Source of the DNA: an uncultured Actinomycetes bacterium
GTDB taxonomy: Bacteria; Actinomycetota; CADDZG01; JAHWKV01
Length of the DNA: 64,000 nucleotides
Reading direction: 5' to 3'
Assembly: GCA_964501265.1 (NCBI GenBank)
Contig: CAZCSK010000001.1
Span: forward strand, 86,314-150,313
In this document: piece after piece, positions 6,474 to 54,718 of the stretch
Position numbering within the stretch: the stretch's first letter is position 1
Layout of the letters: each line of letters begins with the position of its first letter
Notes under the pieces: generated by a model
The model's input: the letters and a program-made list of their open reading frames with translations, nothing else
Databases searched by the model: none
What the model was told of the DNA's origin: nothing
Translations under genes and position numbers: made by a program

Positions 6474-9400
6474 TCACAGGAGGAAGTCCCAGAGGTTACC
6501 CGTTCGGTCCAGCACCACGCCGGCGAACGAACTGGGCAGATCAAACGCTTTGTAGCTATCCACTCCCACGGTGTAAGGATGGCTGGCAGCGACAGCGGTC
6601 ACGGCTCCGAACGGGTGGATGCCGCCGTAGCCGTCGAGCACGTAACCCGAGTTCGGCTCGTTCGTTAGCAGCGCATCGTTGGCGATGTCGTTGCCAGCGA
6701 AGTAAGGCAGCCCTGTCAGTGCAGCCGCGCCGTTGACCGGGTGCATGCCGCCGTAGCCGTCCAGGATGTACCCAGGTGAGTCTCCCGTCGCGGGATCCTG
6801 CAGCACCAGCTCACGTGCGATGTCGATGCTGAAGTAAGGCCCGGGCACAGCACCGTTCCCGCCGAACGGGTGGATTCCACCACGACCGTCGAGCATGTAT
6901 CCGCCGTCATAGTCTTGCTCCTGGTTGTAACCGGTCAGGACCACGTCCCTTGCGATGTCGTTGCCGGGGAAGTACGGAAGTCCCTGGATTGCGTTCGGCG
7001 TGGTTCCGCTGAGGGTGCGGAACGGGTGCATACCGCCCCAACCATCGAGGACGAATCCGCCTGACACGTCGCCATTCTGGTCTTCAAGTAGGACAACTTC
7101 GCGTGCGATGTCGAAGTTGGGGAAGTAGGGCAGTCCCGTGACCGCTTCAGCCGCACCTACGGGGTGCAGCCCTCCGTATCCATCGAGGATGTACCCGCTG
7201 CAACTGTCGAACATCTCCACGTCTCGTGCGATGTCGCCCGAGAATGTGGGCTCGTTATACGGACCACATGAAGCGTTGGTTATCGTGCCCACGCCCTGGG
7301 GGTCGGAAATCGTTGCGTTGGTTGCCCCACTTAGGTTGACGAAGAAGGTCTCGTCGGGCTCAAACGTCGTATCTGCGTTAACCGTGATGTCGACTGTTTG
7401 GGTGGTCGTCCCAGGAGCGAAGATAAGCGTGGTCGTGACGACAGCCGTGTAGTCCAGCGGTGCTGTGGCTGTGCCGTTAGCCGTCGCATAATCAACAGTG
7501 ACGGTCTGACCACTGGGTGAGCCAAGAGTCACAGTGAAGGTGGCGGTGGTGGTACCCGCCGTGGGCTCCGCTACCGTCACGTCGTTGATGGACAAGCCGG
7601 GGGAGGCGGGAGGGTCATTGTCATTGATCGTGCCGACTCCCTGACCATCCAGGATTGCTGCGTTCACCGCGTTGGAAAGGTTGACGAAGAAGTTCTCGCT
7701 TGGCTCGTCCAATGCGTCATCCACGACCGAGACGTTGACCGTCTGCGTGGTTGCCCCGGGCGCGAATGTGACCGTGCCGGTAGCAGATGTGTAGTCCGCC
7801 GGTGCCGAGGCAGTGCCGTTGGCCGTCGCATAGTCGACGGTGACGGTCTGAGCGCTGGGCGCGGAAAGAGTCACCGTGAAGGTAGATGGCCCAGCTCCCT
7901 CGGTGACCGCCGGCGCGTCATTGATAGACAGAGTGGCGGTAGCTGGGTCGTTGTCGTTGATCGTGCCCACACCCTGACCATCAAGGATCGATGCGTTCGT
8001 CGCGTTGGAGAGGTTGACGAAGAAGTTCTCGCTGGGCTCGTCCACTGCGTCATCCACGACCGAGACGTTCACCGTCTGGGTGGTTGCCCCAGGCGCGAAC
8101 GTGAGAGTGGTGGTGGCAACGGCTGTGTAGTCCGCCGGTGCGGTGGCGGTGCCGTTGGCCGTCGCATAATCGACGGTCACTGTCTGACCGCTGGGGGCGG
8201 ACAGAGTCACCGTGAAGGTAGCTGGTCCGGCTCCCTCGGTGACCGCCGGCGCGTCATCGATGGACAAAGTGGCAGTAGCTGGGTCGTTGTCAGTGATCGT
8301 ACCCACGCCCTGACCATCAAGGATCGTTGCGTTCACCGCGTTGGAGAGGTTGACGAAGAAGTTCTCGGTTGGCTCATCCAATGCGTCATCCACGACCGAA
8401 ATGTTGACCGTCTGGGTGGTGGTACCGGGCGCGAATGTAGCCGTTGCAAGGGTAACGGCTGTGTAGTCCCCCGGCGCCGCGGCAGTGCCGTTGGCCGTCG
8501 AGTAGTTGACCGTTACCTCCTCGCTAATTGCTCCCGACAGCGTGATCGTGAAGGTAGCCGGGCCCCCGCTCTCGCTGACCGACGGAGCGTCGTTGATCGA
8601 GATCGTAGGCGCCATCACGTAGCCATTAAGCAGGTCGTGGCCGAGGAAGCAGCCGTTGGAGCAGGAATCCGCCGCGGTGATGTTCCCATCGCTGTTCAGG
8701 TCCACGAGACCGTTGTTGGCGGCGGCGGGAGGGTTCGCGAATCCACAGGGATTCGTGTTTCCTGCCGTGTTACCGAGGATGTCGGCCCCATCCGTCATGT
8801 CGCCGGCCCCGGCGTCGACCGTCTCACCGATGAGCCCGAAGTGACAGTCGTTGGCGTTGATCATCTCGTTGCCGTCAGAGTCCACCCGACCGCTGATGGC
8901 GGACCAAGCGAAGTCAGAGTCGCCGACATCCGGATTATCGGGATCACCGGCGTTAAAGACGGTGGGCAGCGGTCCATCGGCCACCTGAAACTCGCCGTCT
9001 ACGACATCGATCGTTACCCCATCGACGGTGCCGTCGTATCCGATGAGGGTGCAGTCGTCGCTGGCGTTGATTACGCCGTCGCCAGCGGCACCATCATTGT
9101 CAACGGTCCAGGCGTTGCAATCCAGGTATCCGTCGATGATGTGGGTGTCGCCGTAAAACGCGTTTGAGTCGTCGCGTCCAGTGACGGTGCCGCTACCGTT
9201 TAGGTCGGCCCGTCCGCCGATAATCGTCGGCGACAGCCCGCCCGTGTATACACCTGCGGGAGGCGGCGGCGGCGGCGCAGGAGCCACTGGCCCAGGAGAC
9301 TGCACGTAGCCGTTTGTAAGGTTGTGTCCGAAGAAACAGCCGTTGGTGCACGAGTCCGCGGCCGTGATGTCTCCGTCGCTGTTAAGGTCCACGAGCCCGT

Positions 9401-10693
9401 TGTTGGCTGGGTCCGGGGAGTTCGCGAACCCACATGGGTTCGTGTTCCCAGGGTCATTTCCGAGGATGTCGGCTCCGTCCGTGGCGTCTCCGAGCCCGGC
9501 GTCGACCGTCACACCGATGAGCCCGAAGTGACACTCATTGGTGATTATCTCGTCGCCATTGGAGTCCACCCGGCCGCCAATCGCGGACCAAGCGAAGTCA
9601 GAGTCGCCGACATCGGAGCTATTCGGATCGTCAGCGTTGAAAACGAAGGGCAGCGGTCCGTCGGCCCACTGGAACTCGCCGTCTACGACGTCGATCTCTG
9701 CCCCATCTGGGGTGCCGTCGTATGCGATGAGAGTGCAGTCGTCATTGGCGTCGATCACGCCGTTGCCGGCGTCCCCGTCGTTGTCGGACGTCCAGGCGTT
9801 GCAGTCGAGCTTGCCGTCGATGATGTGGGTATCGCCGTAGAACGCGTTCGAGTCGTCGCGCCCAGTGACGGTGCCGTTACCGTTTAGGTCGGCCTCTCCG
9901 CTGAAGACCGTCGGGGAGAAACCTCCCGTGTAAGAACCCGCAGGAGGTACGGGGGCCGCGGGTCCAGGAGACTGCACAAAGCCGTTAGTTAGGTTGTGGC
10001 CGAAGAAGCAGCCGTTGGTGCACGAGTCGGCGGCGGTGATGTTCCCGTCGCTGTTCAGGTCGACAAGACCATTGTTGGCTTCGGCGGGAGCGTTCGCAAA
10101 ACCACATGGGTTCGTATTCCCCGCGGTATTCCCGAGAATGTCGGCCCCATCGTGGGGGTCTCCCAGTCCGGCGTCGACCGTGTCGCCAATGAGCCCGAAG
10201 TGACAGTCGTTAGCATTGATCGTCTCGTTGCCATCGGAATCCACCCTGCCGCTAATCGTGGACCATGCGAACGCAGAATCGCCAACGTCAGGGTTGTTCG
10301 CGTCCCCGGCTTGGGGAAAGACGGTAGGAAGCGGGCCGGCCCATTGGAACCCACCGGCTACCACGGTAATTGTGACGCCACCTGGCGTGCCGTTGTATCC
10401 GACGAGCGTGCAGTTGTCGGCGGTTGTGATCGTTCCATCTCCGCCGCTGCCATCGTTGACAGACCCCCAATCGTCGCAGTCGAGCCCGCCGTCGATGATG
10501 TGGGTGTCGCCGTAAAACGCATTCGAGTCGTCGCGACCGTTACCCACGCCGTCACCGTTGAGGTCGGCATTTCCGTTCAGGACCGTCGGGGAGAAACCTC
10601 CCGTGAAGTCGGCTGCTGAAGCGGGGCTCGCCAGGAAGAACTGCCCTTGCAGGATCAACAGGGTGAGGACGCTGGTAAGTGCAACAGACTTCA
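6474..10693 (-). CDS. Giant secreted repeat protein: 3x ~228-aa Ca-binding-loop repeats, 4x Calx-beta, C-terminal 5x 'LDGxGGxHP…DIAR' repeats
   Basis: Signal peptide MKSVALTSVLTLLILQG…ASAADF (ATG at 10693, preceded by aagga). Three near-identical units begin …YTGGFSPTV… and contain DLNGDG / VDLNSDGNITAAD loops. Calx-beta units follow (…VTVDYATANGTATAPADYTA…). The C-terminus has repeats GYILDGYGGLHPVG…PYFPNFDIAREVVL. The ORF-track start at 10739 is probably an upstream extension. Confidence 0.8.
7290..8535. repeat. Tandem Calx-beta-encoding repeats (~330-nt period) within the giant gene; homologous array at ~2400-3700 in the amidase-family gene
   Basis: Repeated protein units …GPATFTVTLSAPSGQTVTVDYATANGTATAPADYTAV…NFFVNLSNATNASILDGQGVGTINDNDP…. 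Confidence 0.7.
8510..10560. repeat. Three tandem near-identical ~680-nt DNA repeats inside the giant gene (encoding the 228-aa Ca-binding unit)
   Basis: Antisense ORFs at 8637, 9324 and 9996 have near-identical translations (MAEEAAVGAGIRRGDVPIAVQVHE… / MSEETAVGARVRGRDVSVAVKVHE… / MAEEAAVGARVGGGDVPVAVQVDK…). This gives a period of ~672-687 nt. Confidence 0.8.
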
Positions 10694-11000
10694 TCCTTGG
10701 GGTGTGCGTTACTTCTGAGGAGCGGTTCCTTCTAAACATCTAGTGTTCCCCTTTCGTAGGAGACCAAAGTTATTGGACAAACGGTTTCTGCCCAGACATT
10801 ACCGAGCTCAAACAATTTTCCTTTGTGATTTGTCTTCGTGATTGCCTGACCCTAGTGGAAATTGTCGCTTTTTGTCAAGTTTGAGAAGTGCCCCCCGGCC
10901 AGCCTCGCTGCCTGCCCTATCCTCCCGAGGAAGTCCTCCGGCTGGTAGCCTCTTGATTTCCTCCCAATTTAGGCCAAATCGTAGGAGTAAGGGCAAGAAA

Positions 11001-11729
11001 ATGAAGCTTTCTGTGGTCATCCCGGTCTTTAACGAGGAACGGACGCTGGACGAGATCCTCGCCCGCGTTGACGCCGATCCAGTCGACAAGGAGATCATCC
11101 TCGTCGACGACGCCTCAACCGACGGGAGCAGAGATCGCCTAAAGGAAATCGAACGAACCAAGGGCAACGTCATTGTTCTCTACCACGACCGCAATATGGG
11201 GAAAGGGGCGGCGCTGCGGACCGGGTTCGAAGCGGCGAGCGGTGATGTAATTGTTATCCAGGACGCCGACCTCGAGTACGATCCGCGGGACTATGCAACG
11301 CTTCTGCAGCCGATAATAGAGGGGAAGGCGGACGTGGTTTTCGGTTCGCGGTTCCTCGGCGGCCCCCACCGAGTCTTCTTCTTCTGGCACTACCTCGGCA
11401 ACAGGTTTGTGACATTGCTATGCAATGTATTCAGCAATCTAAACTTGTCGGACATGATGACTTGCTACAAGGTATTCCGGCGTGAAGTGATAAATGACAT
11501 CACGCTGCGGTCCAATCGGTTCGGTTTCGAGCCGGAGTTCACCATCAAGGTCGCCAAAAGAGGCTACCGAATCTATGAAGTTCCCATCAGTTACGCAGGG
11601 CGCAGTTACGAGGAAGGAAAGAAGATCACCTGGAAGGACGCTTTCAGGGTAACTTGGACGATCTTTCGAACGGCTTTGTTCGACCGCGCACCTGGGGTAA
11701 AGAGGCGGTCGTACCTGGGAGGCTCTTAA
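11001..11729 (+). CDS. GT2 glycosyltransferase, Dpm1/ArnC/GtrB-like polyprenyl-phosphate sugar synthase
   Basis: [20 protein letters not shown]…[10 protein letters not shown]…[11 protein letters not shown]… The DAD/DxD motifs and C-terminal region are typical of polyisoprenyl-phosphate glycosyltransferases. SD aggag lies 8 nt upstream of ATG 11001. Confidence 0.8.
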
Positions 11730-11738
11730 GGTTCACGG

Positions 11739-12527
11739 ATGCAATATTTAGAGAGCTCGCGCCTGTCCCAGATATGGGCCGCAAGACAACTCCTTAAGAA
11801 CCTCACCGTACGCGAACTAAAGATTCGCTATAAGCGGTCGGCGCTTGGATTCCTGTGGAGCCTGCTGAACCCTCTTCTAATGATGGCCGTCTTCACGCTG
11901 GTCTTTGGGGTCGCCTTCGACATCGGCATTAAGGACTTCCCCATTTTCTTCCTTGTTGGCTACTTGCCTTGGTCGTTCTTTCAGGCTTGCGTTCAGGTTT
12001 CGACCGGCATCATCGTGGGTAACGCAAACCTTGTTAATAAGGTCTACTTTCCCAGAGAAACACTGCCCCTCGCCGTTGTTTTGAGCCAGCTTGTGCACTT
12101 CGTGCTCGCGATGGGGGTTCTGTTCGTCGCTCTAGCGGTCAAGGGGTACGCCTTCCTTCCTTACCTTCCCAGCCTGTTACTTGCGATTGTCTTGCTCGTT
12201 GGACTTTCGACGGGGATATCGATGCTGATGGCCGCAGCGAACACAAAGCTGCGGGACATCCAAGAGTTTCTCAACGTTTTGTTTCTCGTCTGGTTCTACA
12301 TGACTCCGGTGATCTACCCCCTTGACCGGATTCCCGCAAGATTTAGATGGATTATTGAGTTAAATCCCATGACGCAGATCGTCGAGATAGTGCGCGACAG
12401 CCTGTACAGGCTCACCTATCCATCTTGGCAGCGGATCGCAGCAGCCACGGCGGCGGCAATCGTATCTATGATCGTTGGCTTCGTGGTGTTCGGACGGCTC
12501 GCCGACGACTTCGCCAAAGAGGTTTGA
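11739..12527 (+). CDS. wzm: ABC-2 type polysaccharide exporter permease (Wzm/TagG/KpsM family)
   Basis: 262 aa with 6 TM segments and an ABC-2 signature region (…LWSLLNPLLMMAVFTLVFG…), followed by an ATPase gene. Confidence 0.8.
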   Translation: MQYLESSRLSQIWAARQLLKNLTVRELKIRYKRSALGFLWSLLNPLLMMAVFTLVFGVAFDIGIKDFPIFFLVGYLPWSFFQACVQVSTGIIVGNANLVNKVYFPRETLPLAVVLSQLVHFVLAMGVLFVALAVKGYAFLPYLPSLLLAIVLLVGLSTGISMLMAAANTKLRDIQEFLNVLFLVWFYMTPVIYPLDRIPARFRWIIELNPMTQIVEIVRDSLYRLTYPSWQRIAAATAAAIVSMIVGFVVFGRLADDFAKEV

Positions 12528-12570
12528 GCTGACCCTTCCAATAGGCGCTGTTTCGGTCCGAGACGTCTCG

Positions 12571-13731
12571 ATGAACTTTCGGATCTACCACGATCGCGCT
12601 ATAGGAATTAGGGACCGACTAGTTGGAAGACGGCGAAAACGGCCGGAGGAATTCCTAGCCCTTCGCAACGTCAATATCGAAGTGCAGCCTGGCGAAACGG
12701 TGGCCCTCATCGGCCCCAACGGATCGGGCAAGTCGACACTGCTCAAGTGCATCGCCCGTATCATGAAGCCCACCAGCGGAGAGATCCTTTTGAGCGGACA
12801 GACCGCAGCCCTGCTAGAGCTAGGCGCTGGATTTCATGGCGATCTAACGGGCCGGGAAAACGTGTATCTGAATGCGTCGATCCTGGGTTTTGCTCGCAAA
12901 CGCGTAGATGAGATTTTCGACGAGATAGTGGCATTCGCTGAGCTCGAAGATTTCATCGATACGCCGGTTCGCAATTACTCGTCAGGCATGTATGTGCGAC
13001 TGGGTTTCGCTGTGGCGGTCAATCTGTCCCCCGAAATATTTTTGGTCGATGAGGTTCTTGCGGTTGGGGATGCTCGCTTTCAGCAGAGGTGCTTCGATCG
13101 CATTCGCCAGCTTCAACGTTCGGGTACTACTATCGTTCTGGTCACTCATGATCTCGACGCAGCCGCCAACATCTGCCGGACTGCCGTGCTGCTGAACAAG
13201 GGCGAAGTGGTCAAAACAGGAGTAAGCCATCTAGTCGTGGACGCCTATAGGGATCTGGTCGCCGAAAGCGGAGTGCATGAACCTACCGGCTGGACTGGAG
13301 GACCCGTACACGGAAGTGGGGAGATGACCGTAACCAACGTCCGGCTCGAATCTAACGGAGATGACCCCTTGTTGAATTCCGGTGATGAGTTCGCCATTTG
13401 TTTCGATGTTGAGACCCACGTGGCTGTCGAGGACCCCGTCTTCGGGATGATCATTCGAGGGGTTGACGGAACTTACTTGTTCGACACCAACACCCTCTGG
13501 CGGCACCAAGCTACCGGCCGATTCGACAAGGGCCAACGCTCGACTGTGAGATTCGAGCTGAAGGCCAACATCCTTTCTGGGCTTTACCTAGTCACTGTGG
13601 CTGCATCAAACTCAGATGGCCGGAGCCCTTACGACTGGCATACCGACGCCCTCGCCTTCGAAGTCCGGGGGCCGGCCCACTCGGCTGGAGTGGCGGATTT
13701 GGGTGCGCATATCAGTGTAAGGAGCACTTGA
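12571..13731 (+). CDS. wzt: ABC polysaccharide exporter ATP-binding protein (Wzt/TagH family) with C-terminal carbohydrate-binding-like extension
   Basis: Walker A GPNGSGKST, LSGG-type signature YSSGMYVRL, Walker B FLVDE. The extra ~150-aa C-terminal beta-rich domain resembles the Wzt C-terminal glycan-terminus-binding domain. Start placed at ATG 12571. Confidence 0.8.
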   Translation: MNFRIYHDRAIGIRDRLVGRRRKRPEEFLALRNVNIEVQPGETVALIGPNGSGKSTLLKCIARIMKPTSGEILLSGQTAALLELGAGFHGDLTGRENVYLNASILGFARKRVDEIFDEIVAFAELEDFIDTPVRNYSSGMYVRLGFAVAVNLSPEIFLVDEVLAVGDARFQQRCFDRIRQLQRSGTTIVLVTHDLDAAANICRTAVLLNKGEVVKTGVSHLVVDAYRDLVAESGVHEPTGWTGGPVHGSGEMTVTNVRLESNGDDPLLNSGDEFAICFDVETHVAVEDPVFGMIIRGVDGTYLFDTNTLWRHQATGRFDKGQRSTVRFELKANILSGLYLVTVAASNSDGRSPYDWHTDALAFEVRGPAHSAGVADLGAHISVRST

Positions 13732-13732
13732 A

Positions 13733-14590
13733 ATGAGCGATAAGGAAAATTTCGAGAGCGACTACTACGCGTCGAGGTCCTTCGATGAGCAGCACTTGCG
13801 CAAAGTGCGTTCTCACTACTTGAAGTTCTTCAACGGCCGTCGATTCCTCGTTGAACTCGGATGTGGCCGCGGAGAGTTCTTGAAAGACTCCACCGAAATA
13901 GTCGATCGCGCGCTTGGAATCGACATTGAGCCCGCAATGGCCGAGGCTGCAAGAGAGCGCGGACTGGAGGTACACGAAGGCGACGCTCTCTCTTACCTGC
14001 GAGAAACCGCCGACCGACCTGACGCCGTGTTCGCAGCACACCTCGTGGAACACTTCAGCGTCGACGACACCTTTGAGCTGCTACGCGCGGCGGCCAACAT
14101 CATGGAACCCGGCGGAGTCGTCGTGCTCGTGACCCCAAACCCATACTGTCTGGCGGTCATGCTGAGTGACTTCTGGAGCGACCCCACCCATGTCCGCCCC
14201 TACACAACGGCTCTGCTCGAGTTCCTTGTCAAACAAGCCGGCTTCGTCGTCATTGAATCGGGTGCGAATCCACTCGACGTACCCGGGCCTCCGCCGGAGT
14301 TGATCGTACCCGAGACGATGGAGGGATGGGGCCCCCTAGAAACCCATCCTCTTCCGGATCTACCGGAGTACAAAGGCTCCATAAGCCGCAGAGTTGATGA
14401 GAGGCTCGAATTCCTTCTACAACGAACCAACGATATCAACCAAACTTTCGCCGCCGTCACAGAAGCCATCCAACGCCGAGTCGATGAGCTGCGACACCAA
14501 ACTCATCTGGCGACCATCGGGGTCAACAACGCACTGAAATACCTCTACGGCCCTAACGAGATATACATCGCCGCAGAGCGCCCCGCTTGA
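13733..14590 (+). CDS. Class I SAM-dependent methyltransferase
   Basis: Motif I LVELGCGRGEF, with downstream acidic and hydrophobic motifs. Translationally coupled to wzt (stop and start 1 nt apart). Confidence 0.7.
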   Translation: MSDKENFESDYYASRSFDEQHLRKVRSHYLKFFNGRRFLVELGCGRGEFLKDSTEIVDRALGIDIEPAMAEAARERGLEVHEGDALSYLRETADRPDAVFAAHLVEHFSVDDTFELLRAAANIMEPGGVVVLVTPNPYCLAVMLSDFWSDPTHVRPYTTALLEFLVKQAGFVVIESGANPLDVPGPPPELIVPETMEGWGPLETHPLPDLPEYKGSISRRVDERLEFLLQRTNDINQTFAAVTEAIQRRVDELRHQTHLATIGVNNALKYLYGPNEIYIAAERPA

Positions 14591-15930
14591 GTCCCCGGGT
14601 CCGCGTGGTCGTTCTTAACTACAACGGCGGCGACTTTATCCTTCGATGTCTTGAGCATCTGACGCTCATCGAGTGGCCGACGGACAGACTCGAAATCGTC
14701 GTGGTCGACAACGCCTCCAGCGACGGCAGCCCATCCCGGATCAAAGCGCGCTTCCCCGACATCGCCGTCCGCGATGCCGGAGGGAACCTCGGGTTCGCGG
14801 GCGGCAACAATGTTGGGCTACAGGATCTGGCTGACATCGATTACGTCGCTCTCCTCAACAACGACGCCTTTGTGGAAGCAAACTGGCTCGCGCCGCTTGT
14901 GAGGGAGTTGGAAAAGGATCCGGGCCTGGGTGCCGTCAACTCGAAGATCGTGTTTTCGTATTCATACGCCGACCTAGCGATCACTTCCGAAACCTTCACC
15001 CCTTCAGAAGGGGACGGACGGTCGCTCGGACTCCGGATAAGCGGGGTCCGCGTGGATGGAGAGGACCGCTTTCGCAAGGCACATTTCGTCGAGGGATTCT
15101 ACGGACCCGAGCATGGCGGGAAAGAAGAAGTCGACTTTCAGTGGACGGGTGCCAAAGCCTTGCTCCGCATCCCAGTCACTCCGGGCCGGACTGAGTCTGA
15201 GTGCGAGCTGCGAGTCGCCGCCGAACGTACCAAGGCAGTTGGATTCTCCACTGAGGACGGATCACGGGAGTACGAAGTTACGCCGACTCCGACCTGGGTC
15301 AAAGTTCCTCTCCCCAAACGCGCGCACGATGTGATCAATAACGTCGGTTCCGAGCTTGTCGTGAGGGGTTACGGGGGCGACCGCGGTTTTCTTGCGCGCG
15401 ACGTTGGACAGTTCGAGGAACCGGCTGAAGTCTTCGCGTGGTGCGGTTGCAGCGCTTTATTCAGGAAGGCTTATCTGGAAGATGTGGGGTTGTTCGATGA
15501 ACATCTCTTCCTTTATTACGAGGACTTTGACCTGTCTTGGCGCGGACGCCGAAGAGGCTGGCGTTATCTCTACGTTCCCGATTCAGTCGTCCGGCACTTT
15601 CACACGGCAACAAGCCAGGAGAACTCGCCGCTCTTCCAGCACTTCGTTCATCGCAACAGGATGCTCGTACTCATCAAGAACGCGCCAGCTTCGCTAGCTC
15701 TTCAGGCGATCACTGCCTACGTTTGGACCACGATCATTCATGCAATCAACGAGATTCTCCTACCGACAATCAAGGGTCGCAGGCCCTCACCAGGAACCAC
15801 ACAGCGAAGGTTGCGGGCCTTCGCATCTTTCATTCGCCTCGTGCCGTGGGCGCTTCGGGAACGGATGCGTATCTCCCGAACCGCAAGAGTCAGCGCGGCG
15901 AAGTTGATGGAATGGGTCGTCGAGAGATGA
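14587..15930 (+). CDS. GT2 family glycosyltransferase (rhamnosyltransferase-like)
   Basis: VRVVVLNYNGGDFILRCLEHL…IVVVDNASSDGS…GGNNVG… The C-terminal region is typical of WbbL/GT2_3-like enzymes. Confidence 0.75.
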   Translation: MSPRVRVVVLNYNGGDFILRCLEHLTLIEWPTDRLEIVVVDNASSDGSPSRIKARFPDIAVRDAGGNLGFAGGNNVGLQDLADIDYVALLNNDAFVEANWLAPLVRELEKDPGLGAVNSKIVFSYSYADLAITSETFTPSEGDGRSLGLRISGVRVDGEDRFRKAHFVEGFYGPEHGGKEEVDFQWTGAKALLRIPVTPGRTESECELRVAAERTKAVGFSTEDGSREYEVTPTPTWVKVPLPKRAHDVINNVGSELVVRGYGGDRGFLARDVGQFEEPAEVFAWCGCSALFRKAYLEDVGLFDEHLFLYYEDFDLSWRGRRRGWRYLYVPDSVVRHFHTATSQENSPLFQHFVHRNRMLVLIKNAPASLALQAITAYVWTTIIHAINEILLPTIKGRRPSPGTTQRRLRAFASFIRLVPWALRERMRISRTARVSAAKLMEWVVER

Positions 15931-17474
15931 AGGTCGCGGTTTACGACCGCTACTGGGGCACCGCCGGAGGAGGAGAAAAGGTGGCGGGAGGGGCAGCTCA
16001 GGTTCTATCGGACGAACATGAAGTCTTCCTACTTGGAAATGAACCGATCGATTTACAAACTCTGCAAGAAAGACTCAACCTCGACCTTCGTCGTGTTCAG
16101 ACCCACATCTTTGACGACACCGGAAGCGGAGCTTTGACGGCCGCAACCGAAAAGTACGACCTGCTGATCAATTGCTCTCACTTAAGCGCCGATCCGTGCG
16201 GCGCGGCCCGCGGCATCTACTATGTCCACTTCCCGACACCCTTCGACCACCACATCGGCGCGCCGCAACGAGCCGCGGTAAAGCTCCTGCGCCCCTTCGT
16301 GAGACCGAGGGGGGTCACCTTGGATTGGGGAAATGGATTCCACCTGCCTGAACAGTTCCGCCTGCGGAGATATAGATGGACGTCCGAAAAGGCCTATCTA
16401 AAGATCAGCGCACCCGAGGGGCGGCGAGCGGAAATTCATCTGACGCTTGGGGCACACAAGCCCGCCGGGTTGGAACCCGCCTATGTGAATATCGATGTGG
16501 ACGGCCGGATGGTGCGAGAACTCGAGGTGGGGCGCAAACCCATTCGTGTCGACCTCGAAACATATGGCCAGGGCGCAAACAAGCCGTCGGTAATCGGGAT
16601 AACCAGCACTGTCTTCGTTCCAAGCGAGGTAGTTGGGGGATCAGACATGAGAAGGCTCGGCGTGCAGCTGCTCTCCGTTAGGGTCGGAGATGGGCTGGGC
16701 TCACGAATAGCGGCTGCCTACCCTCTACTCGCAACCCCACCGGTGTCCCTCGACTTCCTTTCCAGCTACGACCGGGTAGTTGCAAACTCCGAGTTCACTC
16801 GCCGATGGGTCGCTATCCGGTGGGGCAGAGACAGCGATCTGCTGTATCCCCCCGTTACTGCCATCGAACCCGGACAGAAGTCGCCGGTCATCCTCTCCGT
16901 GGGACGTTTCTTCGACCGCAAACACGGCCACTCGAAGAAACAGTTGGAGCTTGTCCGCGCGTTCGCCACAATGCACCGCTCCGGCCTTCGGGGGTGGGAA
17001 CTTCATTTGGCGGGTGGGGTCAGCGACGACCAGCGGGAGTACCTCCACAAGATTGAGCGCGAAGCACACGGGCTGCCGGTTCACATCCACATCGATGCCT
17101 CCGGCACGCAGCTGCGAGAGCTCTACTCGAGGGCCAGCATCTTCTGGCATGCGACCGGATTGGGAGAAACCGCAGAGCGCACTCCTCATCTTATGGAGCA
17201 CTTCGGGATATCAACCGTGGAGGCGATGTCTGCCGGAGCGGTGCCCGTTGTGATCGCGAAGGGTGGGCAGCCGGAGATCGTGCAAGAGGGCGTGAGTGGA
17301 TTCTTGTTCGCAGATCTTGAGGAACTCGTTGCGAAGACACACCGGATCATCGAAGACCCAGACATGACGCAGCGCGTGTCGTCAGGCGCCAGAGCACGAT
17401 CTGCCGAGTTCAACATCGAACATTTCGGCGCGCGCTTGAAGGGAATCATCGACCAGATCATCATGTCGGCGTGA
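15927..17474 (+). CDS. GT4 (GT-B) glycosyltransferase with ~180-aa inserted domain; paralog 1 of a tandem pair
   Basis: Start MKVAVYDRYW… (ATGA overlap with the upstream stop). The C-terminal GT4 half reads VGRFFDRKHGHSKKQLELV…EHFGISTVEAMSAGAVPVV… The ORF-track N-terminal extension (15537) overlaps the previous gene and was rejected. Confidence 0.7.
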   Translation: MKVAVYDRYWGTAGGGEKVAGGAAQVLSDEHEVFLLGNEPIDLQTLQERLNLDLRRVQTHIFDDTGSGALTAATEKYDLLINCSHLSADPCGAARGIYYVHFPTPFDHHIGAPQRAAVKLLRPFVRPRGVTLDWGNGFHLPEQFRLRRYRWTSEKAYLKISAPEGRRAEIHLTLGAHKPAGLEPAYVNIDVDGRMVRELEVGRKPIRVDLETYGQGANKPSVIGITSTVFVPSEVVGGSDMRRLGVQLLSVRVGDGLGSRIAAAYPLLATPPVSLDFLSSYDRVVANSEFTRRWVAIRWGRDSDLLYPPVTAIEPGQKSPVILSVGRFFDRKHGHSKKQLELVRAFATMHRSGLRGWELHLAGGVSDDQREYLHKIEREAHGLPVHIHIDASGTQLRELYSRASIFWHATGLGETAERTPHLMEHFGISTVEAMSAGAVPVVIAKGGQPEIVQEGVSGFLFADLEELVAKTHRIIEDPDMTQRVSSGARARSAEFNIEHFGARLKGIIDQIIMSA

Positions 17475-19093
17475 AGATCGCCGTCTACAACCGCTACTGG
17501 CAGACCCTCGGAGGAGGCGAACGGTACACCGGTTCCGTGGCCCAGGCGCTCGCGGCAAAACATGACGTGACCTTGCTCACCAACGATCCCCTGGACCTCG
17601 AACTCATCAGCGAACGCCTTGACCTCGACCTTTCGGGGGTTCGCGTCCAACAGATCACCGATGCAGGACGACTGGCACTAAAGCGCGCCACCGAAAGCTT
17701 CGACCTTTTTGTCAACTGCTCCCATCTGAGTGAAGATGCCAACGGAGCGCGTCGTGGGATCAAGATGGTCCAGTTTCCGACTGCTCATCTAACTTTCCTC
17801 CAGCACCTAAACATCAGGCTTTTGGGGCGCTTCGTAAGATCACGTCAGGCACGTCTGGAATGGGGGGTTGGTTTCTATCCACCCGAAGGAAACTTGCTCA
17901 GAGCCTATCGCTGGACCAGCAGCGAGAGAGTCGTATTAAGGGTCTTCGCGCCGCTGGACGAAGAAACTGAGCTGTCGCTACTTATAGGTTCGCGGCCTAA
18001 GGATGCAGGTTCGGATTCGATCAAAGTCGAAGTCGACGGGGTCAATCTGGCAATGGTCCCTTGGAGTTTCACGGGTGGGACGCGCGTCCGCGTTTCGGTG
18101 CGCGGCCTTGGGCTGGATTCGCCCGTCGAGGTGATCCTTCGTAGCGACACTTTTGTTCCAGCGGAGATTGGCCTGGGAAATGACATACGCAGACTTGGGT
18201 TTCCCTTGCTGTCGGTCAGAGTTGGTAAGCGAATCACCGGAAATCCGCGTTTCAAAGACCTAGCGTCGTTCGCGGCCCCCAGACCTGTCGAGGCCATCGA
18301 CGGCGCGCTTGGTACTGTCGGACTCAGGCTCGGATGGCAATACCCCTACCTTCGCGAGCCCAAACCAAATCTCGGCGACCATCTGGATACCTACGACCGG
18401 GTCGTCTCCATTTCGGAGTTCACCCGGAAGTGGGTCAAGATTCGATGGGATCGCGATAGTGACATCCTCTATCCGGCGGTTCCCCAGATTCCGGGGAGAG
18501 CCAAGGAGAACATCATCCTGTCAGTGGGAAGGTTCTTCGATCGCAAGCACGGACACTCGAAGAAACAACTCGACATGGTGCGCGCATTCAGATCGATGAT
18601 CGAAAGGGGCCTCGGCGGATGGGAACTGCATCTTTGCGGGGGCGTTAGCCCTGAGCAAGTTGAATACCTGGATCGTGTACGCGAAGAGGCGGAGGGGCTT
18701 CCAATTCGTATCCACGTGGACGTTTCCGGAGAGGTTCTGAAGGACCTTTATTCGCGCGCAGCGATCTATTGGCATGCCACCGGATTAGGTGAGAAGGAAT
18801 CGAAAGACCCACACCTGTTCGAACACTTTGGAATAACTACCGTCGAAGCGATGTCCGCGGGGGCGGTGCCGGTCGTGATTGGGAAGGCAGGTCAAATTGA
18901 GATCGTGACAGACGGGGTGGACGGCTTTCACTTCCAGAATCTCGGAGAGTTAGTCGGCAAGACAATGCGATTGATCCAAGATGAGGCGCTCCGCAGATCG
19001 TTATCACAGGCCGCGATCCATCGAGCGAAGGATTTTGCCATCGAGCGCTTTTCCGAGCGACTCGAAGAGATCGTGCAACAAGTAGTCGGGTAA
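17471..19093 (+). CDS. GT4 (GT-B) glycosyltransferase with inserted domain; paralog 2
   Basis: MKIAVYNRYW…VGRFFDRKHGHSKKQLDMV…EHFGITTVEAMSAGAVPVV… ~50% identical to the upstream gene. GTG start overlaps the upstream stop. Confidence 0.7.
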   Translation: MKIAVYNRYWQTLGGGERYTGSVAQALAAKHDVTLLTNDPLDLELISERLDLDLSGVRVQQITDAGRLALKRATESFDLFVNCSHLSEDANGARRGIKMVQFPTAHLTFLQHLNIRLLGRFVRSRQARLEWGVGFYPPEGNLLRAYRWTSSERVVLRVFAPLDEETELSLLIGSRPKDAGSDSIKVEVDGVNLAMVPWSFTGGTRVRVSVRGLGLDSPVEVILRSDTFVPAEIGLGNDIRRLGFPLLSVRVGKRITGNPRFKDLASFAAPRPVEAIDGALGTVGLRLGWQYPYLREPKPNLGDHLDTYDRVVSISEFTRKWVKIRWDRDSDILYPAVPQIPGRAKENIILSVGRFFDRKHGHSKKQLDMVRAFRSMIERGLGGWELHLCGGVSPEQVEYLDRVREEAEGLPIRIHVDVSGEVLKDLYSRAAIYWHATGLGEKESKDPHLFEHFGITTVEAMSAGAVPVVIGKAGQIEIVTDGVDGFHFQNLGELVGKTMRLIQDEALRRSLSQAAIHRAKDFAIERFSERLEEIVQQVVG

Positions 19094-19133: not shown

Positions 19134-21878
19134 ATGCTGCGTAGAGTCCTAGTTTCAATTGCCTTGCTTGGCTCTCTCCTCGTCAGGGCACCAATTCCTG
19201 CATTGGGCGGACCTAGTTCGTTTGTCTTTCAGGGGGGAGGCTTCGGGCACGGAATTGGAATGAGCCAGTACGGCGCGCTCGGGATGGCCCGCGCCGGTTT
19301 CCCGTACGACCAGATCCTTAAGCACTACTACACCGGGGTGACGGTGGGCTCACGAGCATTGCCCCCCACTATCAGAGTGGGCCTCCGGCAAACCGACGGC
19401 GGCTTTCGCCTTTCGGGAAACGGGCTCTTCACCTTCTCCACATCGATCGACGGAGCAGCAATGTCCACCGGCAACACAGACGAGTGGTGGGACATCCGCC
19501 GCGAGGGATCGTCGGTCTTTCTTCTCGCCCCGCCGGCCCGCGTCCAACAGGGAGAACCTGCCGAGCGGGGACCTTTCGCCCAGATATGGCAGCGACCGGC
19601 ATCGGGCGTTCTACTGAAGTTCGTCGAATTTGTAAGTCCATCCTGGAAGGTAACCGGCGAGTACGCACACGGGCGCATACAAGTGAAGGCAAGCGCTGCG
19701 GCGACCACCACGCACGTGGTTCTCGATGCGATCTCGCTCGAAGAGTACGTCTATGGAGTTGCGGAGGTTCCTTCATCTTGGCCAGCGGAAGCAAAGAAGG
19801 CGCAGGCGGTCGCGGCTCGCACCTACGCGGGCAAGAAGGCGGAGGAACAACAAAACCGAAGCAGTTGTTCGTGCGCGGTCGTCGACGACACCCGTGACCA
19901 AGTGTACGCAGGATGGATCAAGGAAACCCCCGCGTGGACGAGCGCGGTTGATGCCACTGCTTCAGTAGTGGTCACGTACGCCGGGGTGATGGTTTCTACG
20001 TTTTACTCCTCTTCGTCCGGCGGATACACCGAGGACAACGAAAAGGTTTGGGGAGGCAGCGCCATCCCGTACCTGCGCGCTGTCTCGGACCTGTACGACA
20101 ATCAGCCGGAAAACTCCCGCTGGCGATGGACGATTTCGGTTTCAGCAGAAGAGTTGAGCAATCGGATCAACAGTTACTTGACCTCTATTGGCCGGCCCCA
20201 GGTGGGAATCGTTCAAGACCTTCTTTATCCGGCGCCGCGCGGGCACGCTGGCCGCATCATCGTGATCAGTGGTAGCGGTGGGGGCGTGACAGTCATCGGA
20301 TCAAGCGCAACCGCGCGGCTTTCAGGCGACCAGTTCAGGTCTGCAGCGAAGTTGCCCAGCTCACTCATCTTCCCATCGATAAACGAACCCACTCGCGACG
20401 TTTCGGGTGGGTACGTGGCAGACGCACGCGGGGGCCTTCATCCTTTCGGCGGAGCGGGGCCGGCAGTGGGTGGCGCCTACTTGAGCCAACCTATAGTGCG
20501 AGACGCGATCTACAGGACTGACGGACGGGGAGGCTATGTTCTCGACGGACGCGGAGGTCTTGCAAGGATCAATGGTGCGCCCGAAATTGGCTCGGCTCCC
20601 GCGTTTGGCATCGACATAGCGCGATCCATGGCCATCACCCCCGACGGATCCGGTGGTTACGTTGTCGACGGATACGGCGGCATCCATAGTTTGGGAAGCG
20701 CGCCGCCCCTTACTGGGAGCCCGTACTGGCAGGGATGGGACATTGCCCGCGCAATTGCTCTTTCTCCCGACGGACTTGGCGGCTATATGTTGGATGGTTT
20801 TGGCGGGCTTCATCCTCTCGGCAACGCCGCGCCAGCGGTTGATCTGCCGTACTTCGGATTTGACATCGCCCGGGATCTGATCATGAGGAGGGACGGAAGC
20901 GGCGGTTATGTGCTCGACGGTTTTGGAGGGATCCACCCGTTCAACGGCGCTCCCGCAATTTCGTCTTCCGGGTATCACGCCGGCGTCGACTCGGCAGCGG
21001 CTCTAGTTCTTCGCAACAAAGGCGTCGGTGGTTATGTGCTCGAACGCTCCGGCGCCCTCGTGGCGGTTGGGGGAGCGCCGGGAGTGTCAACGACTGGCTA
21101 CTTCGACTCGGGCGCTGCCCGGGGAGTCCTCCTTCCTCCCGACCCCGAGGGGTACATCCTTTCGAGCGAGGGCCCAGTGAGCGCGTTCGGTCTGGCGCCG
21201 GCCCTTGTCGGCGCGCCTAATTTTGGCATGGACATCGCGCGCGACCTCGCCCTTCGTCCAAACAGAACCGGATTCGTGCTCGACGGATATGGAGGATTGC
21301 ATCCTGTAGGGGTCGGGGCCCCCGCAGCGATCGGTGGCTCGTATTTCTCCGGACAGGATCGAGTTCGTCGGATCGCGCTGACAACCGACGGAAGTTACGG
21401 ATACGCGATGGATGCCGACGGAAGCCTGTACCCATTCGACGGCGCACCCGCGGTAACGGAGACTTCAACCTGGTGGCCGGATGGCTTCGATGTGGCGCGC
21501 GACTTCGTGCTTCGTCCATCGGGAGGCGGCTACCTCATAGACCGGGGAGGACTGGTTCACGAATTCGGTGGAGCGCCAGCAGTTTCAAGCTCGTGGTACG
21601 TAGGAGGAGAAGATCGCGCTCGAGCCCTTGCCCTCTTGGCCGACGGACAGTCGGGGTATGTCCTTGAAGTAAACGGCGTCCTGCATCAATTCGGTAGCGC
21701 GCCACCACTCGAATCTGGAGTGGTCATCGCCGACGCTCGCGACCTGATTCTGCGTCCGGACGGCCGTTCGGGCTGGATCGTCGGTGTTTCGTTAATCCAT
21801 CCTTTCGGTGGAGCGCCTCCAGTCTCGGGTGGATTGCCTTCCGACAAAGCAGCTCGGGCCGGCGTGGGAACCTCCTAG
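19134..21878 (+). CDS. SpoIID/LytB-domain cell-wall protein with C-terminal array (~12x) of 'LDGxGGxHP…DIAR' repeats
   Basis: Signal peptide; the SpoIID/LytB hallmark GGGFGHGIGMSQYGALGMA…YDQILKHYYTG. Residues ~413-914 are ~42-aa repeats, e.g. GGYVLDGFGGIHPFNGAPAI…, GFVLDGYGGLHPVGVGAPAAIGGSYFSGQDRVRRIAL. Confidence 0.8.
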   Translation: MLRRVLVSIALLGSLLVRAPIPALGGPSSFVFQGGGFGHGIGMSQYGALGMARAGFPYDQILKHYYTGVTVGSRALPPTIRVGLRQTDGGFRLSGNGLFTFSTSIDGAAMSTGNTDEWWDIRREGSSVFLLAPPARVQQGEPAERGPFAQIWQRPASGVLLKFVEFVSPSWKVTGEYAHGRIQVKASAAATTTHVVLDAISLEEYVYGVAEVPSSWPAEAKKAQAVAARTYAGKKAEEQQNRSSCSCAVVDDTRDQVYAGWIKETPAWTSAVDATASVVVTYAGVMVSTFYSSSSGGYTEDNEKVWGGSAIPYLRAVSDLYDNQPENSRWRWTISVSAEELSNRINSYLTSIGRPQVGIVQDLLYPAPRGHAGRIIVISGSGGGVTVIGSSATARLSGDQFRSAAKLPSSLIFPSINEPTRDVSGGYVADARGGLHPFGGAGPAVGGAYLSQPIVRDAIYRTDGRGGYVLDGRGGLARINGAPEIGSAPAFGIDIARSMAITPDGSGGYVVDGYGGIHSLGSAPPLTGSPYWQGWDIARAIALSPDGLGGYMLDGFGGLHPLGNAAPAVDLPYFGFDIARDLIMRRDGSGGYVLDGFGGIHPFNGAPAISSSGYHAGVDSAAALVLRNKGVGGYVLERSGALVAVGGAPGVSTTGYFDSGAARGVLLPPDPEGYILSSEGPVSAFGLAPALVGAPNFGMDIARDLALRPNRTGFVLDGYGGLHPVGVGAPAAIGGSYFSGQDRVRRIALTTDGSYGYAMDADGSLYPFDGAPAVTETSTWWPDGFDVARDFVLRPSGGGYLIDRGGLVHEFGGAPAVSSSWYVGGEDRARALALLADGQSGYVLEVNGVLHQFGSAPPLESGVVIADARDLILRPDGRSGWIVGVSLIHPFGGAPPVSGGLPSDKAARAGVGTS

Positions 21879-26105: not shown

Positions 26106-26684
26106 TTACGGCAGCGGTCGCAGGCCCTTTAGATCGTCTATCTGTTCGTAGCTGCGGCCACACGAACAGGAAAGCTCCGCAGGCAACGTTAGCCCGCACT
26201 CGCATACCCATCCTACCCTGCGAGCGGGATTGCCGACCGTGACAGCGTGCGCAGGAACGGATCTCGTAACCGTTGCCCCTGCCCCTACGAACGCGTGCTC
26301 TCCAATGATCACTCCGCAGACGATGGTCGCATTGGCTCCTATCGTTGCACCGCGCCTCACGAGAGTCGGCGAAAACTCGTCGGGGGACTTCTTGAAGGCC
26401 GCACGCGGGTTGAGGTCGTTCGTGAACACCGCGTGAGGGCCGACGAACACGTCATCCTCTATCGTCACCTTGTCGCAGATCATGATGTAGTTCTTGATCG
26501 TGACACGGTCTCCCACGACGGCTCCGCTTTCGATGAAAGCATGCCCGCAGATGTTGCAGTCCGCTCCGACGTGCGCTCCTTGCATAATCTGGGCAAAAGC
26601 CCAAACTCGCGTCCTTGGACCGACATTTACCGATTCGCACAGGGCTTTGTCGTGCACGAATACGGATGGGTCGGGCAAAGTCAA
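26106..26684 (-). CDS. Left-handed beta-helix (hexapeptide) sugar N-acetyltransferase, WbpD/PglD-like
   Basis: Hexapeptide repeats (…IGANATIVCGVIIGEHAFVGAGATV…) with a C-terminal Cys cluster (CECG…CSCG). Translationally coupled to the upstream DegT gene. Confidence 0.75.
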   Translation of the reverse strand: MTLPDPSVFVHDKALCESVNVGPRTRVWAFAQIMQGAHVGADCNICGHAFIESGAVVGDRVTIKNYIMICDKVTIEDDVFVGPHAVFTNDLNPRAAFKKSPDEFSPTLVRRGATIGANATIVCGVIIGEHAFVGAGATVTRSVPAHAVTVGNPARRVGWVCECGLTLPAELSCSCGRSYEQIDDLKGLRPLP

Positions 26685-29589: not shown

Positions 29590-29616
29590 CTCAACGGACG
29601 GTAGATTAGCGCCGTG
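29590..29616 (+). promoter_or_regulatory. Putative leaderless-type promoter: -10 TAGATT, 6-nt spacer, GTG start codon
   Basis: cggTAGATTagcgccGTG read directly. The same arrangement and flanking sequence recur at 35803-35829. Confidence 0.4.
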
Positions 29617-54708: not shown

Positions 54709-54718
54709 AAAGGTTCGG

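Follow-up and report, generated by a model that had tools for sequence, protein, structure and literature searches.

The window that we analyzed, meaning the whole 64,000-nucleotide stretch of DNA to which all coordinates refer, contains a forward-strand operon that encodes the permease (Wzm) and the ATPase (Wzt) of a glycan exporter, a SAM-dependent methyltransferase (MTase), and several glycosyltransferases (GTs). The original prediction addressed the interval 11739–14590; all genes of this interval lie where it placed them, on the forward strand, although its title omitted the first of them, wzm. It also counted three more MTases in the surrounding island, and these are present as well, the last of them far from the operon. 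The features are as follows.

11001–11729, + strand: GT2 glycosyltransferase, first gene of the operon (Pfam Glycos_transf_2, E = 1e-36; ATG start chosen)
11739–12527, + strand: Wzm, ABC-2 permease of the glycan exporter (Pfam ABC2_membrane, E = 7.8e-25)
12529–13731 (start uncertain), + strand: Wzt, exporter ATPase with a nucleotide-binding domain (NBD) and a C-terminal carbohydrate-binding domain (CBD) (Pfam ABC_tran and Wzt_C)
13309–13698, + strand: Wzt_C jelly-roll CBD of Wzt (PF14524, E = 8.2e-27)
13450–13452 (Ile), 13594–13596 (Thr), 13600–13602 (Ala), and 13636–13638 (Trp), + strand: putative methyl-pocket residues of the CBD (alignment to Aquifex aeolicus)
13733–14590, + strand: class I SAM-dependent MTase, 285 aa, proposed capping O-methyltransferase (Pfam Methyltransf_23/25/11)
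14587–15930, + strand: GT2 glycosyltransferase, 447 aa, candidate polymerizing enzyme (Pfam Glycos_transf_2)
15927–17474, + strand: GT4 glycosyltransferase a (GT4a), 515 aa, candidate polymerizing enzyme (Pfam Glycos_transf_1)
17471–19093, + strand: GT4 glycosyltransferase b (GT4b), 540 aa (Pfam Glycos_transf_1)
33259–34785, − strand: GT2–MTase fusion (Pfam)
34782–35723, − strand: further MTase (Pfam)
40770–42170, − strand: LytR-CpsA-Psr (LCP) ligase (Pfam LytR_cpsA_psr, E = 1.4e-43, and LytR_C)
54692–55207, + strand: small MTase-like ORF, 40 kb from the 13733 MTase

The stop codon of wzt (TGA, 13729–13731) and the ATG of the MTase (13733) are separated by a single base, exactly as predicted, with a Shine-Dalgarno-like AAGGAG (13719–13724) ahead of the ATG. 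After this 1-nt gap, the MTase, GT2, GT4a, and GT4b genes are joined by 4-nt overlaps: TTGA at 14587 (MTase stop and GT2 start), ATGA at 15927 (GT2 stop and GT4a start), and GTGA at 17471 (GT4a and GT4b). Upstream, the wzm stop lies 2 nt before the likely wzt start. Because the whole operon is packed in this way, with six genes all showing overlaps or gaps of 1–9 nt, the 1-nt spacer between wzt and the MTase is by itself uninformative. Thus, the proposed translational coupling of the two genes is borne out as a tight junction but is an operon-wide property rather than one special to this pair.

No gene of the cassette matched an NCBIfam family above its cut-off, and the remaining genes are described here by their similarities. 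The GT2 at 11001 resembles polyprenyl-phosphate sugar synthases (AglJ/PpgS/PgfS-like, all matches being below the family cut-offs) and its probable role is to provide a lipid-linked sugar for extracytoplasmic decoration. The C-terminal part of the 14587 GT2 has weak similarity to rhamnosyltransferases (TIGR01556, E = 1e-10, below cut-off), and GT4a and GT4b are tandem paralogues with 52% pairwise identity. The LCP ligase likely attaches the exported polymer to the wall; its presence favors a single-membrane cell, and the host is an uncultured, probably monoderm actinobacterium, placed in Actinomycetota by the affiliation of its best homologues.

Wzt is readily recognized along its entire length. 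In addition to the ABC_tran match (E = 4.5e-22), it gave a full-length match to A. aeolicus Wzt (7k2t/8dku) at E = 8.5e-77 as a single sequence and at E = 3.7e-120 over residues 3–392 when the family profile was used; matches to TagH/TarH ranged from E = 1e-51 to 1e-56. Three start codons are available: CTG at 12529 (400 aa), TTG at 12475 (418 aa), and ATG at 12571 (386 aa), the last being the database call. We consider CTG 12529 or TTG 12475 more likely because ATG 12571 cuts a conserved N-terminal strand (AVSVRDVS). The length of 386 aa implied by the original prediction would correspond to a truncated protein. The 120 best Wzt homologues, about 395–425 aa in length, all carry Wzt_C.

The central structural claim was that the C-terminal extension of Wzt folds as a Wzt-C jelly roll, and every approach that we applied agrees with it. 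The PF14524 match scores 94 bits against a gathering score of 30 and is complete, covering profile positions 5–142 of 143 in residues 279–408 of the 418-aa ORF; the motif VTNVRLESNGDD, near which the extension was predicted to begin, lies at the beginning of this domain. With phmmer, the extension matched the A. aeolicus CBD (8dky/6o14, E = 1.6e-6) and E. coli O9a Wzt-C (2r5o, E = 1.7e-3). As modeled by AlphaFold2 (AF2), the extension is an all-beta sandwich of nine strands (pLDDT 89.8), and when this model was compared with the PDB by Foldseek, the best 17 matches were all Wzt CBDs, including 8dky, 6o14, 2r5o, and 5hno (TM 0.60–0.71 on query length and 0.68–0.80 on isolated-CBD targets). The first of these was 8dky, the A. 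aeolicus domain with 3-O-methyl-mannose (TM 0.80, rmsd 2.6 Å), while 2r5o and 5hno gave TM 0.71 and 0.69. Dimerization stabilized by exchange of C-terminal strands is characteristic of CBD-bearing Wzt proteins; the present model is of a monomer and contains a C-terminal strand at residues 162–167 of the segment. Full-length Wzt was used as the query for homologues since a word-indexed search with the CBD alone returned only 2 proteins; invariant and near-invariant residues across 53 homologues indicate that the CBD is clearly constrained.

Comparison with A. aeolicus also suggests what the domain may bind. The methyl pocket of the A. aeolicus CBD (Leu300, Thr346, Ala348, and Trp362) aligns to Ile, Thr, Ala, and Trp here, and among 53 family members the Trp is kept in 50 and the Thr in 45. 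These residues resemble those of the only Wzt CBD that was solved with an O-methyl sugar, that of A. aeolicus; in the E. coli O9a CBD, the reader of a methyl-phosphate cap, the Trp position is occupied by Arg. We regard the likeness as supportive rather than as proof because the mapping comes from a 28%-identity alignment in which the "trap loop" of this CBD is shorter by two residues than that of A. aeolicus.

We then considered the MTase. Five Pfam MTase families match it (Methyltransf_23, E = 1.5e-15; motif I LVELGCGRG), and VELGCGRGEF is invariant in 28 homologues, the best match among genome representatives being 52% identical. Residues 1–180 form a Rossmann core with an invariant DFWSDPTHVRPY motif. 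After this core come a Pro-rich linker, an amphipathic helix of 53 residues (219–271) that is conserved and shows 3.6-residue periodicity across the family, and a final strand (276–282). In the AF2 model (pLDDT 91.6), which matches class I MTases in fold, the helix is flanked by the final two strands of the Rossmann sheet and does not lie in a C-terminal tail. The best PDB sequence match was 3dli (E = 1.4e-22; Foldseek TM 0.79 on target); the substrate is unreadable from the fold because Foldseek matches beyond 3dli are only generic class I methyltransferases. Although WbdD structures exist in the PDB (PMC3482155), no WbdD chain appeared among PDB sequence matches at E ≤ 0.1 or among the top 50 Foldseek matches, and neither a long coiled-coil ruler nor a kinase domain was seen in the 285-aa protein by Pfam or AF2. 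Some relatives of the MTase are fusions with GT4 (P0336) or GT2 (P0259), and others are double MTases with a coiled coil between them (P0366). It is conceivable, albeit doubtful, that the conserved insertion made up of the Pro-rich linker and the helix serves as a compact docking arm or mini-ruler, holding the MTase on the CBD/NBD of Wzt or on the GT2/GT4 polymerase. The insertion would in that case take the place of the long coiled coil found in WbdD-type terminators, and the family would represent a new class of stand-alone capping enzymes that is widespread in Actinomycetota and Chloroflexota.

The pairing of wzt with the MTase is conserved beyond this window: across Actinomycetota and Chloroflexota, at least 31 related loci have the MTase start −7 to +73 nt from the stop of a wzt whose product carries an extension of ~150 aa. 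The synteny count covered 47 non-redundant loci in which the MTase relative is full length. The wzt end lies −7 to +73 nt from the MTase start in 22 of these, and wzt lies elsewhere within 10 kb in nine; seven have no wzt in the flanks of the MTase, and contig ends cut the remaining nine. Another nine loci with split MTase matches also have wzt directly upstream. Every wzt that is partnered with the MTase has a C-terminal extension of 143–195 aa. In related loci, wzm orthologues lie directly upstream of wzt, and the same GT2 and GT4 genes nearly always follow the MTase (fused to each other in locus L006). Related clusters contain between two and four MTase genes. MTases of other families also lie immediately downstream of three more distant Wzt_C homologues.

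Two cases in this set call for separate treatment. A 716-aa ORF in locus L061 appeared to be a Wzt–CBD–MTase fusion, but its +1 frame reads a normal Wzt C terminus (SAGRGAG followed by a stop) as in the siblings L044 and L065. We rejected the fusion: the MAG comes from long reads, and a 1-nt frameshift in one of its GC-rich runs is the likelier explanation. In a Frankiales/Mycobacteriales clade, the same MTase family accompanies a Wzt extension (for example, L025:9513–10001) that is not recognizably Wzt_C; profile–profile comparison found no similarity between it and the window-type CBD (probability 5%), and we therefore do not call these extensions Wzt_C. This pairing counts against the capping model set out below; the clade might conceivably combine the MTase with a cap-reading domain of another kind.

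Together, these features suggest that the locus is probably the export-and-termination core of an ABC-transporter-dependent pathway for a cell-surface glycan, in which the MTase caps the polymer and the Wzt CBD reads the cap. In this model, the GT2 and the two GT4 enzymes would extend a polyprenol-linked polymer at the cytoplasmic face of the membrane until the 285-aa MTase O-methylates the non-reducing-end sugar and blocks further extension. The jelly roll of Wzt would then bind the O-methyl sugar through the small hydrophobic Ile/Thr/Ala/Trp pocket, so that only capped chains would be loaded into the Wzm–Wzt channel and exported, and the LCP ligase or another transferase would anchor the polymer on the wall or on a surface protein. 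The methyl-cap interpretation originally proposed has held wherever it could be examined in silico, namely for the fold, the recurrent adjacency, and the pocket residues, and the coupling of capping to export is well supported. From these data we infer that the methyl group is terminal, that the 13733 MTase installs it, and that export depends on it, although the capping role is not uniquely assignable to this enzyme because the window has three other MTases and there are more near related clusters. Chain length would be set by competition between capping and extension and not by a long coiled-coil ruler. The predicted "defined length" of the polymer is accordingly the more tentative part of the original proposal because the MTase lacks both homology to WbdD and such a ruler.

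Other arrangements of the same enzymes deserve consideration. The MTase might decorate internal residues of the polymer (for example, with one O-methyl group per repeat) or a precursor, while the CBD reads something else at the chain end, perhaps a sugar attached by one of the GT4 paralogues. The tightest partner of the MTase is indeed the GT pair and not Wzt, given that the seven loci without wzt in the flanks have MTase–GT2–GT4, a module that would also fit internal methylation; the fusion of MTase relatives to GTs and the lack of a ruler-type coiled coil point in the same direction. Moreover, the duplication of GT4a and GT4b is found only in this window compared with related loci, so one of the two could add a distinct terminal residue. 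Against this stand the CBD pocket, which is like that of the methyl-sugar-binding A. aeolicus domain and unlike that of O9a, and the association of a CBD on Wzt with a terminal cap in every characterized case in the literature consulted (PMC11231755). The placement of an MTase directly after wzt also recurs when the MTase family has changed, a pattern more readily understood if the transporter requires a methyl mark. We therefore judge internal decoration to be unlikely.

It is still less likely that the cap is made by another enzyme of the island, the GT2–MTase fusion (33259–34785) or the MTase at 34782–35723, with the 13733 MTase adding a second, non-terminating methyl group. Several MTases are present in the window, as in the related clusters, and MTase–GT fusions are classical terminator architectures (WsaE and K. 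pneumoniae O7 ORF6), but the 33259–35723 genes lie 20 kb away in a separate operon on the opposite strand, and conserved stop/start coupling to wzt across phyla is seen only for the 13733 family. Finally, the adjacency could reflect operon packing only, with a CBD that is unneeded for export and an MTase that is functionally unrelated to the transporter. The short overlaps and gaps throughout the operon are what such packing would produce; however, the adjacency is kept across two phyla, and the CBD is both constrained in sequence and retained by all 120 of the closest Wzt homologues, which makes this explanation highly improbable. We conclude that terminal capping by the MTase, read by the Wzt CBD, is the interpretation to be preferred.

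So understood, the locus is a well-known cap-reading exporter design in a new lineage with a different MTase family; it is ordinary in its logic and overturns nothing. Cap-dependent export through Wzm–Wzt is a quality-control step of ABC-transporter-dependent glycan assembly that has been worked out almost entirely on Gram-negative O antigens. Here, a wzm–wzt(CBD)–MTase–GT cassette occurs in this locus and in roughly 50 relatives from uncultured Actinomycetota and Chloroflexota, which predicts an O-methyl sugar at the chain ends of the wall polymers or S-layer glycans made by these lineages. To our knowledge, the 13733 MTase family has no characterized member, and its small size and stand-alone form make the enzyme a capping candidate for use in glyco-engineering.

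The closest structural comparison is with A. aeolicus WzmWzt (7k2t and 8dku; CBD 6o14 and 8dky), the best solved full-length relative of this Wzt with both NBD and CBD, whose CBD is also the best structural match. The two pockets have Thr, Ala, and Trp in common, with Ile here at the position of Leu, but the CBDs are only ~28% identical, the trap loop differs as noted above, and A. aeolicus is a diderm with LPS whereas the present host is an actinobacterium that has an LCP ligase. Its O-methyl sugar is reportedly found only at the non-reducing terminus, at about one per chain, and its CBD binds the 3-O-methyl-mannose/rhamnose cap (PMC9445017). The E. coli O8/O9a (K. pneumoniae O5/O3) systems share the logic that a terminal methyl or methyl-phosphate stops polymerization and is read by the C-terminal domain of Wzt. 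The CBD fold matches as well; the O9a CBD has Arg in place of the pocket Trp. According to a summary passage in PMC9445017, O9a Wzt from which the CBD has been deleted fails to export polymer. Known ruler-type terminators carry long coiled coils (PMC11231755; PMC3482155), and both the kinase domain of WbdD and its 250-residue C-terminal coiled-coil/WbdA-recruiting region are absent from the 13733 MTase. The protein closest to this MTase, 3dli from Archaeoglobus fulgidus, shares an F..DPTH..P motif with it but is a structural-genomics protein of 240 aa without assigned function or glycan context.

In gene order, two systems are especially similar. The CPA "TET" operon of Pseudomonas syringae runs wzm–wzt–wbdD-like O-methyltransferase–wbdA, with MTase and GT fused in some strains (PMC7820976). 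It thus shares the order of permease, CBD-bearing ATPase, SAM methyltransferase, and polymerizing GT but serves proteobacterial LPS and has a single two-domain GT4 (WbdA-like) instead of GT2 and GT4. The S-layer cluster of Geobacillus stearothermophilus NRS 2004/3a, wzm–wzt–wsaE with overlapping stop and start codons, makes a 2-O-methyl-rhamnose cap that is proposed to be read by Wzt (PMC2943079). It resembles the present locus in having a Gram-positive host and, by gene order and described activities, in having O-methyltransferase and GT functions directly after wzt. MTase–GT fusion terminators are known from this cluster (WsaE; PMC2943079) and from K. pneumoniae O7 (ORF6; PMC11231755). WsaE is one trifunctional protein with an MTase and two rhamnosyltransferase domains (PMC2943079), whereas the MTase, GT2, and GT4 here are separate, translationally coupled genes, with fused counterparts among their relatives in P0336 (MTase–GT4) and P0259 (MTase–GT2).

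The exporter genes lie within a single tightly packed operon on the plus strand (10842–19093), which contains the following genes:

11001–11729, plus: GT2 resembling polyprenyl-phosphate sugar synthases, opening the operon
11739–12527, plus: wzm, ABC-2 permease (ABC2_membrane, E = 7.8e-25)
ending at 13731, plus: wzt, exporter ATPase (stop codon TGA, 13729–13731)
13733–14590, plus: SAM methyltransferase (MTase)
14587–15930, plus: GT2, 447 aa
15927–17474, plus: GT4, first of two paralogues
17471–19093, plus: GT4, second of two paralogues

One base separates the wzt stop from the MTase ATG (13733), which has AAGGAG 8 nt upstream. Overlaps of TTGA, ATGA, and GTGA make the remaining junctions equally close. 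Such coupling therefore characterises the operon throughout, and the tightness of the wzt–MTase junction is no evidence by itself. The tandem GT4 paralogues (15927–19093) share 52% identity, and Pfam scarcely recognises the N-terminal ~340 aa of either. Because related loci hold a single GT4 copy, the doubling is a lineage-specific duplication, which may alter the polymer.

In the public gene call for Wzt (P0123, 386 aa), which starts at ATG 12571, the conserved first strand AVSVRDVS is lost; the homologues and the TagH structures start a few residues ahead of it. Only two in-frame candidates exist: CTG 12529, a rare start codon, lies 2 nt past the end of wzm and has AAGAGG 6 nt ahead of it, and TTG 12475 would overlap wzm by 53 nt. 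The true start is likely one of these, with the choice between them uncertain.

The original prediction, that Wzt and the adjoining methyltransferase imply a methyl-capped polymer of defined length, would have been refuted had the C-terminal extension of Wzt not folded as a Wzt-C jelly roll; by sequence and predicted fold, it does. Pfam Wzt_C spans residues 279–408 of the 418-aa Wzt ORF and is covered over its whole length (E = 8.2e-27). Full-length A. aeolicus Wzt (7k2t/8dku) is matched by the whole protein with E = 8.5e-77 and by a profile of 53 homologues with E = 3.7e-120 across residues 3–392; the extension alone matches the carbohydrate-binding domain (CBD) of A. aeolicus Wzt (E = 1.6e-6) and the Wzt-C domain of E. 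coli O9a (2r5o; E = 1.7e-3). An AlphaFold2 model of the extension, built from 53 sequences, has nine beta strands (pLDDT 89.8). When this model was searched against the PDB with Foldseek, the best 17 matches were all Wzt CBDs, including those of A. aeolicus (8dky; TM 0.80, rmsd 2.6 Å), E. coli O9a (2r5o; TM 0.71), and the Kdo-binding O12 domain (5hno; TM 0.69), followed by a thousand-fold fall in E-value before the first unrelated beta sandwiches. In every testable respect, this Wzt belongs with the CBD-bearing Wzt proteins.

In A. aeolicus, 3-O-methyl-D-mannose but not mannose is bound by the CBD, whose methyl pocket consists of Leu300, Thr346, Ala348, and Trp362 (PMC9445017). A phmmer alignment places Ile (codon 13450–52), Thr (13594–96), Ala (13600–02), and Trp (13636–38) at these positions. 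Among the 53 homologues, 50 keep the Trp, 45 have the Thr and the remainder Ser in its place, and 51 have either Ala or Gly at the Ala position. The pocket Trp is not generic to Wzt_C, since the methyl-phosphate-reading Wzt-C of E. coli O9a carries Arg there. At 28% identity in this alignment, the pocket residues point to an O-methyl sugar as the cap. Compared with A. aeolicus, the trap loop is shorter by two residues.

The MTase belongs to the class I SAM enzymes (motif I VELGCGRGEF; matches to five Pfam MTase families; AlphaFold2 pLDDT 91.6). Its closest solved relative, 3dli (E = 1.4e-22), is an uncharacterised protein of A. fulgidus. An exhaustive profile search returned 3,316 cluster representatives at E ≤ 1e-30. 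The family is marked by an invariant DFW.DPTH.R.Y motif, invariant His103, Glu106, and His107, a Pro-rich linker, and a 53-residue helix (219–271) with a conserved hydrophobic stripe and a top periodicity of 3.6 residues; the final strand, NEIYVVA, returns into the Rossmann sheet. The conserved helical insertion is a possible subject for follow-up. Close or best profile matches include an MTase–GT4 fusion (P0336, 814 aa), an MTase–GT2 fusion (P0259, 618 aa), and a double methyltransferase with a ~130-residue coiled coil between its domains (P0366, 843 aa), architectures that resemble glycan terminator–polymerase proteins. Neither sequence searches nor Foldseek against the PDB detected a relation to WbdD. 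Unlike WbdD, the MTase has neither a kinase domain nor a coiled coil at its C-terminus, and it would be a functional analogue from outside the WbdD family. Elsewhere in the window, a small methyltransferase-like ORF (54692–55207, plus) far from the cassette matches the family profile (E = 1.4e-9) and overlaps the start of an NTP-transferase gene (55198–55893).

We mapped the window proteins onto 80 loci from a scan with one genome per species, almost all of them in MAGs of Actinomycetota (Acidimicrobiia, Frankiales, Mycobacteriales, Pseudonocardiales) or Chloroflexota, and onto further individually fetched loci. Across the 47 non-redundant loci with a full-length MTase relative, the end of wzt falls −7 to +73 nt from where the MTase starts in 22, wzt lies elsewhere within 10 kb in nine, and it is absent from the flanks in seven; a contig end cuts the locus in the other nine. 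In nine additional loci, where the MTase was matched as two pieces, wzt again lies immediately upstream. Every such MTase-linked Wzt carries a C-terminal extension of 143–195 aa. GT2 and GT4 orthologues then follow the MTase in nearly all loci, fused into one 980-aa protein in an Acidobacteriota locus, and two Acidimicrobiia loci have dTDP-rhamnose genes flanking the cassette. In the reverse direction, three Wzt_C homologues (L088, L089, L090; 44–47% identity) had a methyltransferase directly after wzt, in each case from another MTase family. As a general rule in this branch, then, a methyltransferase comes after a CBD-bearing Wzt, which supports a functional link and also marks the design as common. 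An apparent 716-aa Wzt–CBD–MTase fusion (L061:8750–10900) most likely arose from a frameshift of 1 nt, within a GC-rich stretch of a long-read MAG, and is no true fusion, since the +1 frame reads the normal Wzt C-terminus of sibling loci (...SAGRGAG*).

Several loci (L021, L025, L029, L031–L048, L065) place ahead of the same MTase–GT2–GT4 cassette a Wzt whose ~150-aa extension is unrecognised as Wzt_C (e.g., L025:9513–10001); their hosts are Frankiales, Mycobacteriales, and Pseudonocardiales MAGs. Pfam found a match in only 19 of 43 extensions, and profile–profile comparison of the Frankiales-type extension with the window-type CBD gave a probability of 5%. It may be a cap-reading domain that has diverged strongly or one of another kind and, like the helical insertion of the MTase, is a possible subject for follow-up.

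The best explanation, which we consider probable, is that GT2 and GT4 would polymerise a lipid-linked chain, the MTase would O-methylate its non-reducing terminal sugar and so stop growth, and the CBD would bind the methyl sugar so that only capped chains enter the Wzm–Wzt channel. It is unlikely, given the pocket residues, that the MTase instead methylates internally without terminating the chain while the CBD reads another cap, although the tighter link of the MTase to the glycosyltransferases than to wzt speaks for this reading. There is a slim chance that another methyltransferase of the island is the capper; candidates are a fusion of an N-terminal polyprenyl-phosphate glycosyltransferase-like GT2 to a C-terminal class I methyltransferase (33259–34785, minus) and a second methyltransferase gene overlapping it by 4 nt (34782–35723). 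That the wzt–MTase adjacency has no functional meaning is highly improbable: although junction spacing is uninformative by itself, the pairing recurs, also with methyltransferases of other families.

The arrangement is real and its interpretation holds up overall, with a methyl cap read by Wzt-C supported and chain-length control its weakest element. Characterised ruler-type terminators hold long coiled coils (PMC11231755; PMC3482155), which the MTase lacks, and methylation by WsaE in vitro is independent of chain length (PMC2943079). Any length control here would more likely be kinetic competition between capping and extension.

Other genes of the window:

2317–6393 and 6474–10739, minus: two very large secreted Calx-beta surface proteins, divergent from the operon; one has penicillin-amidase, cadherin-like, and Calx-beta domains, and the other (1421 aa) three ~230-aa internal repeats, Calx-beta-like repeats, and C-terminal repeats
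21808–24186: YfhO-type GT-C enzyme, closing the gene block
26106–28810, minus: hexapeptide acetyltransferase, DegT-type aminotransferase, and GFO/IDH/MocA oxidoreductase in a row
29614–31239: PMT_2-type GT-C enzyme near the operon's gene block
40770–42170: LCP ligase

A SpoIID-like protein, an amidase, and a dTDP-glucose 4,6-dehydratase-like enzyme are also encoded. Similar plus-strand ORFs at 8637–9167, 9324–9887, and 9996–10619 are antisense shadows of the repeats of the 1421-aa protein. The pairing of the GT2 at 11001–11729 with GT-C enzymes suggests extracytoplasmic addition of side-chain sugars. The amino-sugar trio resembles a typical set for an acetamido (possibly 2,3-diacetamido) sugar nucleotide and hints at the composition of the polymer or its linkage unit. 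Nothing specific to LPS was seen in the window and the best homologues are actinomycetotal, so the exported product is most likely either a polysaccharide linked to the wall or a glycan on surface proteins.

What is new is a different methyltransferase family in an unstudied phylum-level setting; the cap-export logic is familiar. In working logic, the system is like WbdD–Wzt of E. coli O8/O9a and WzmWzt of A. aeolicus, and in gene order it is nearest to wzm–wzt–wsaE of Geobacillus and the TET operon of P. syringae.
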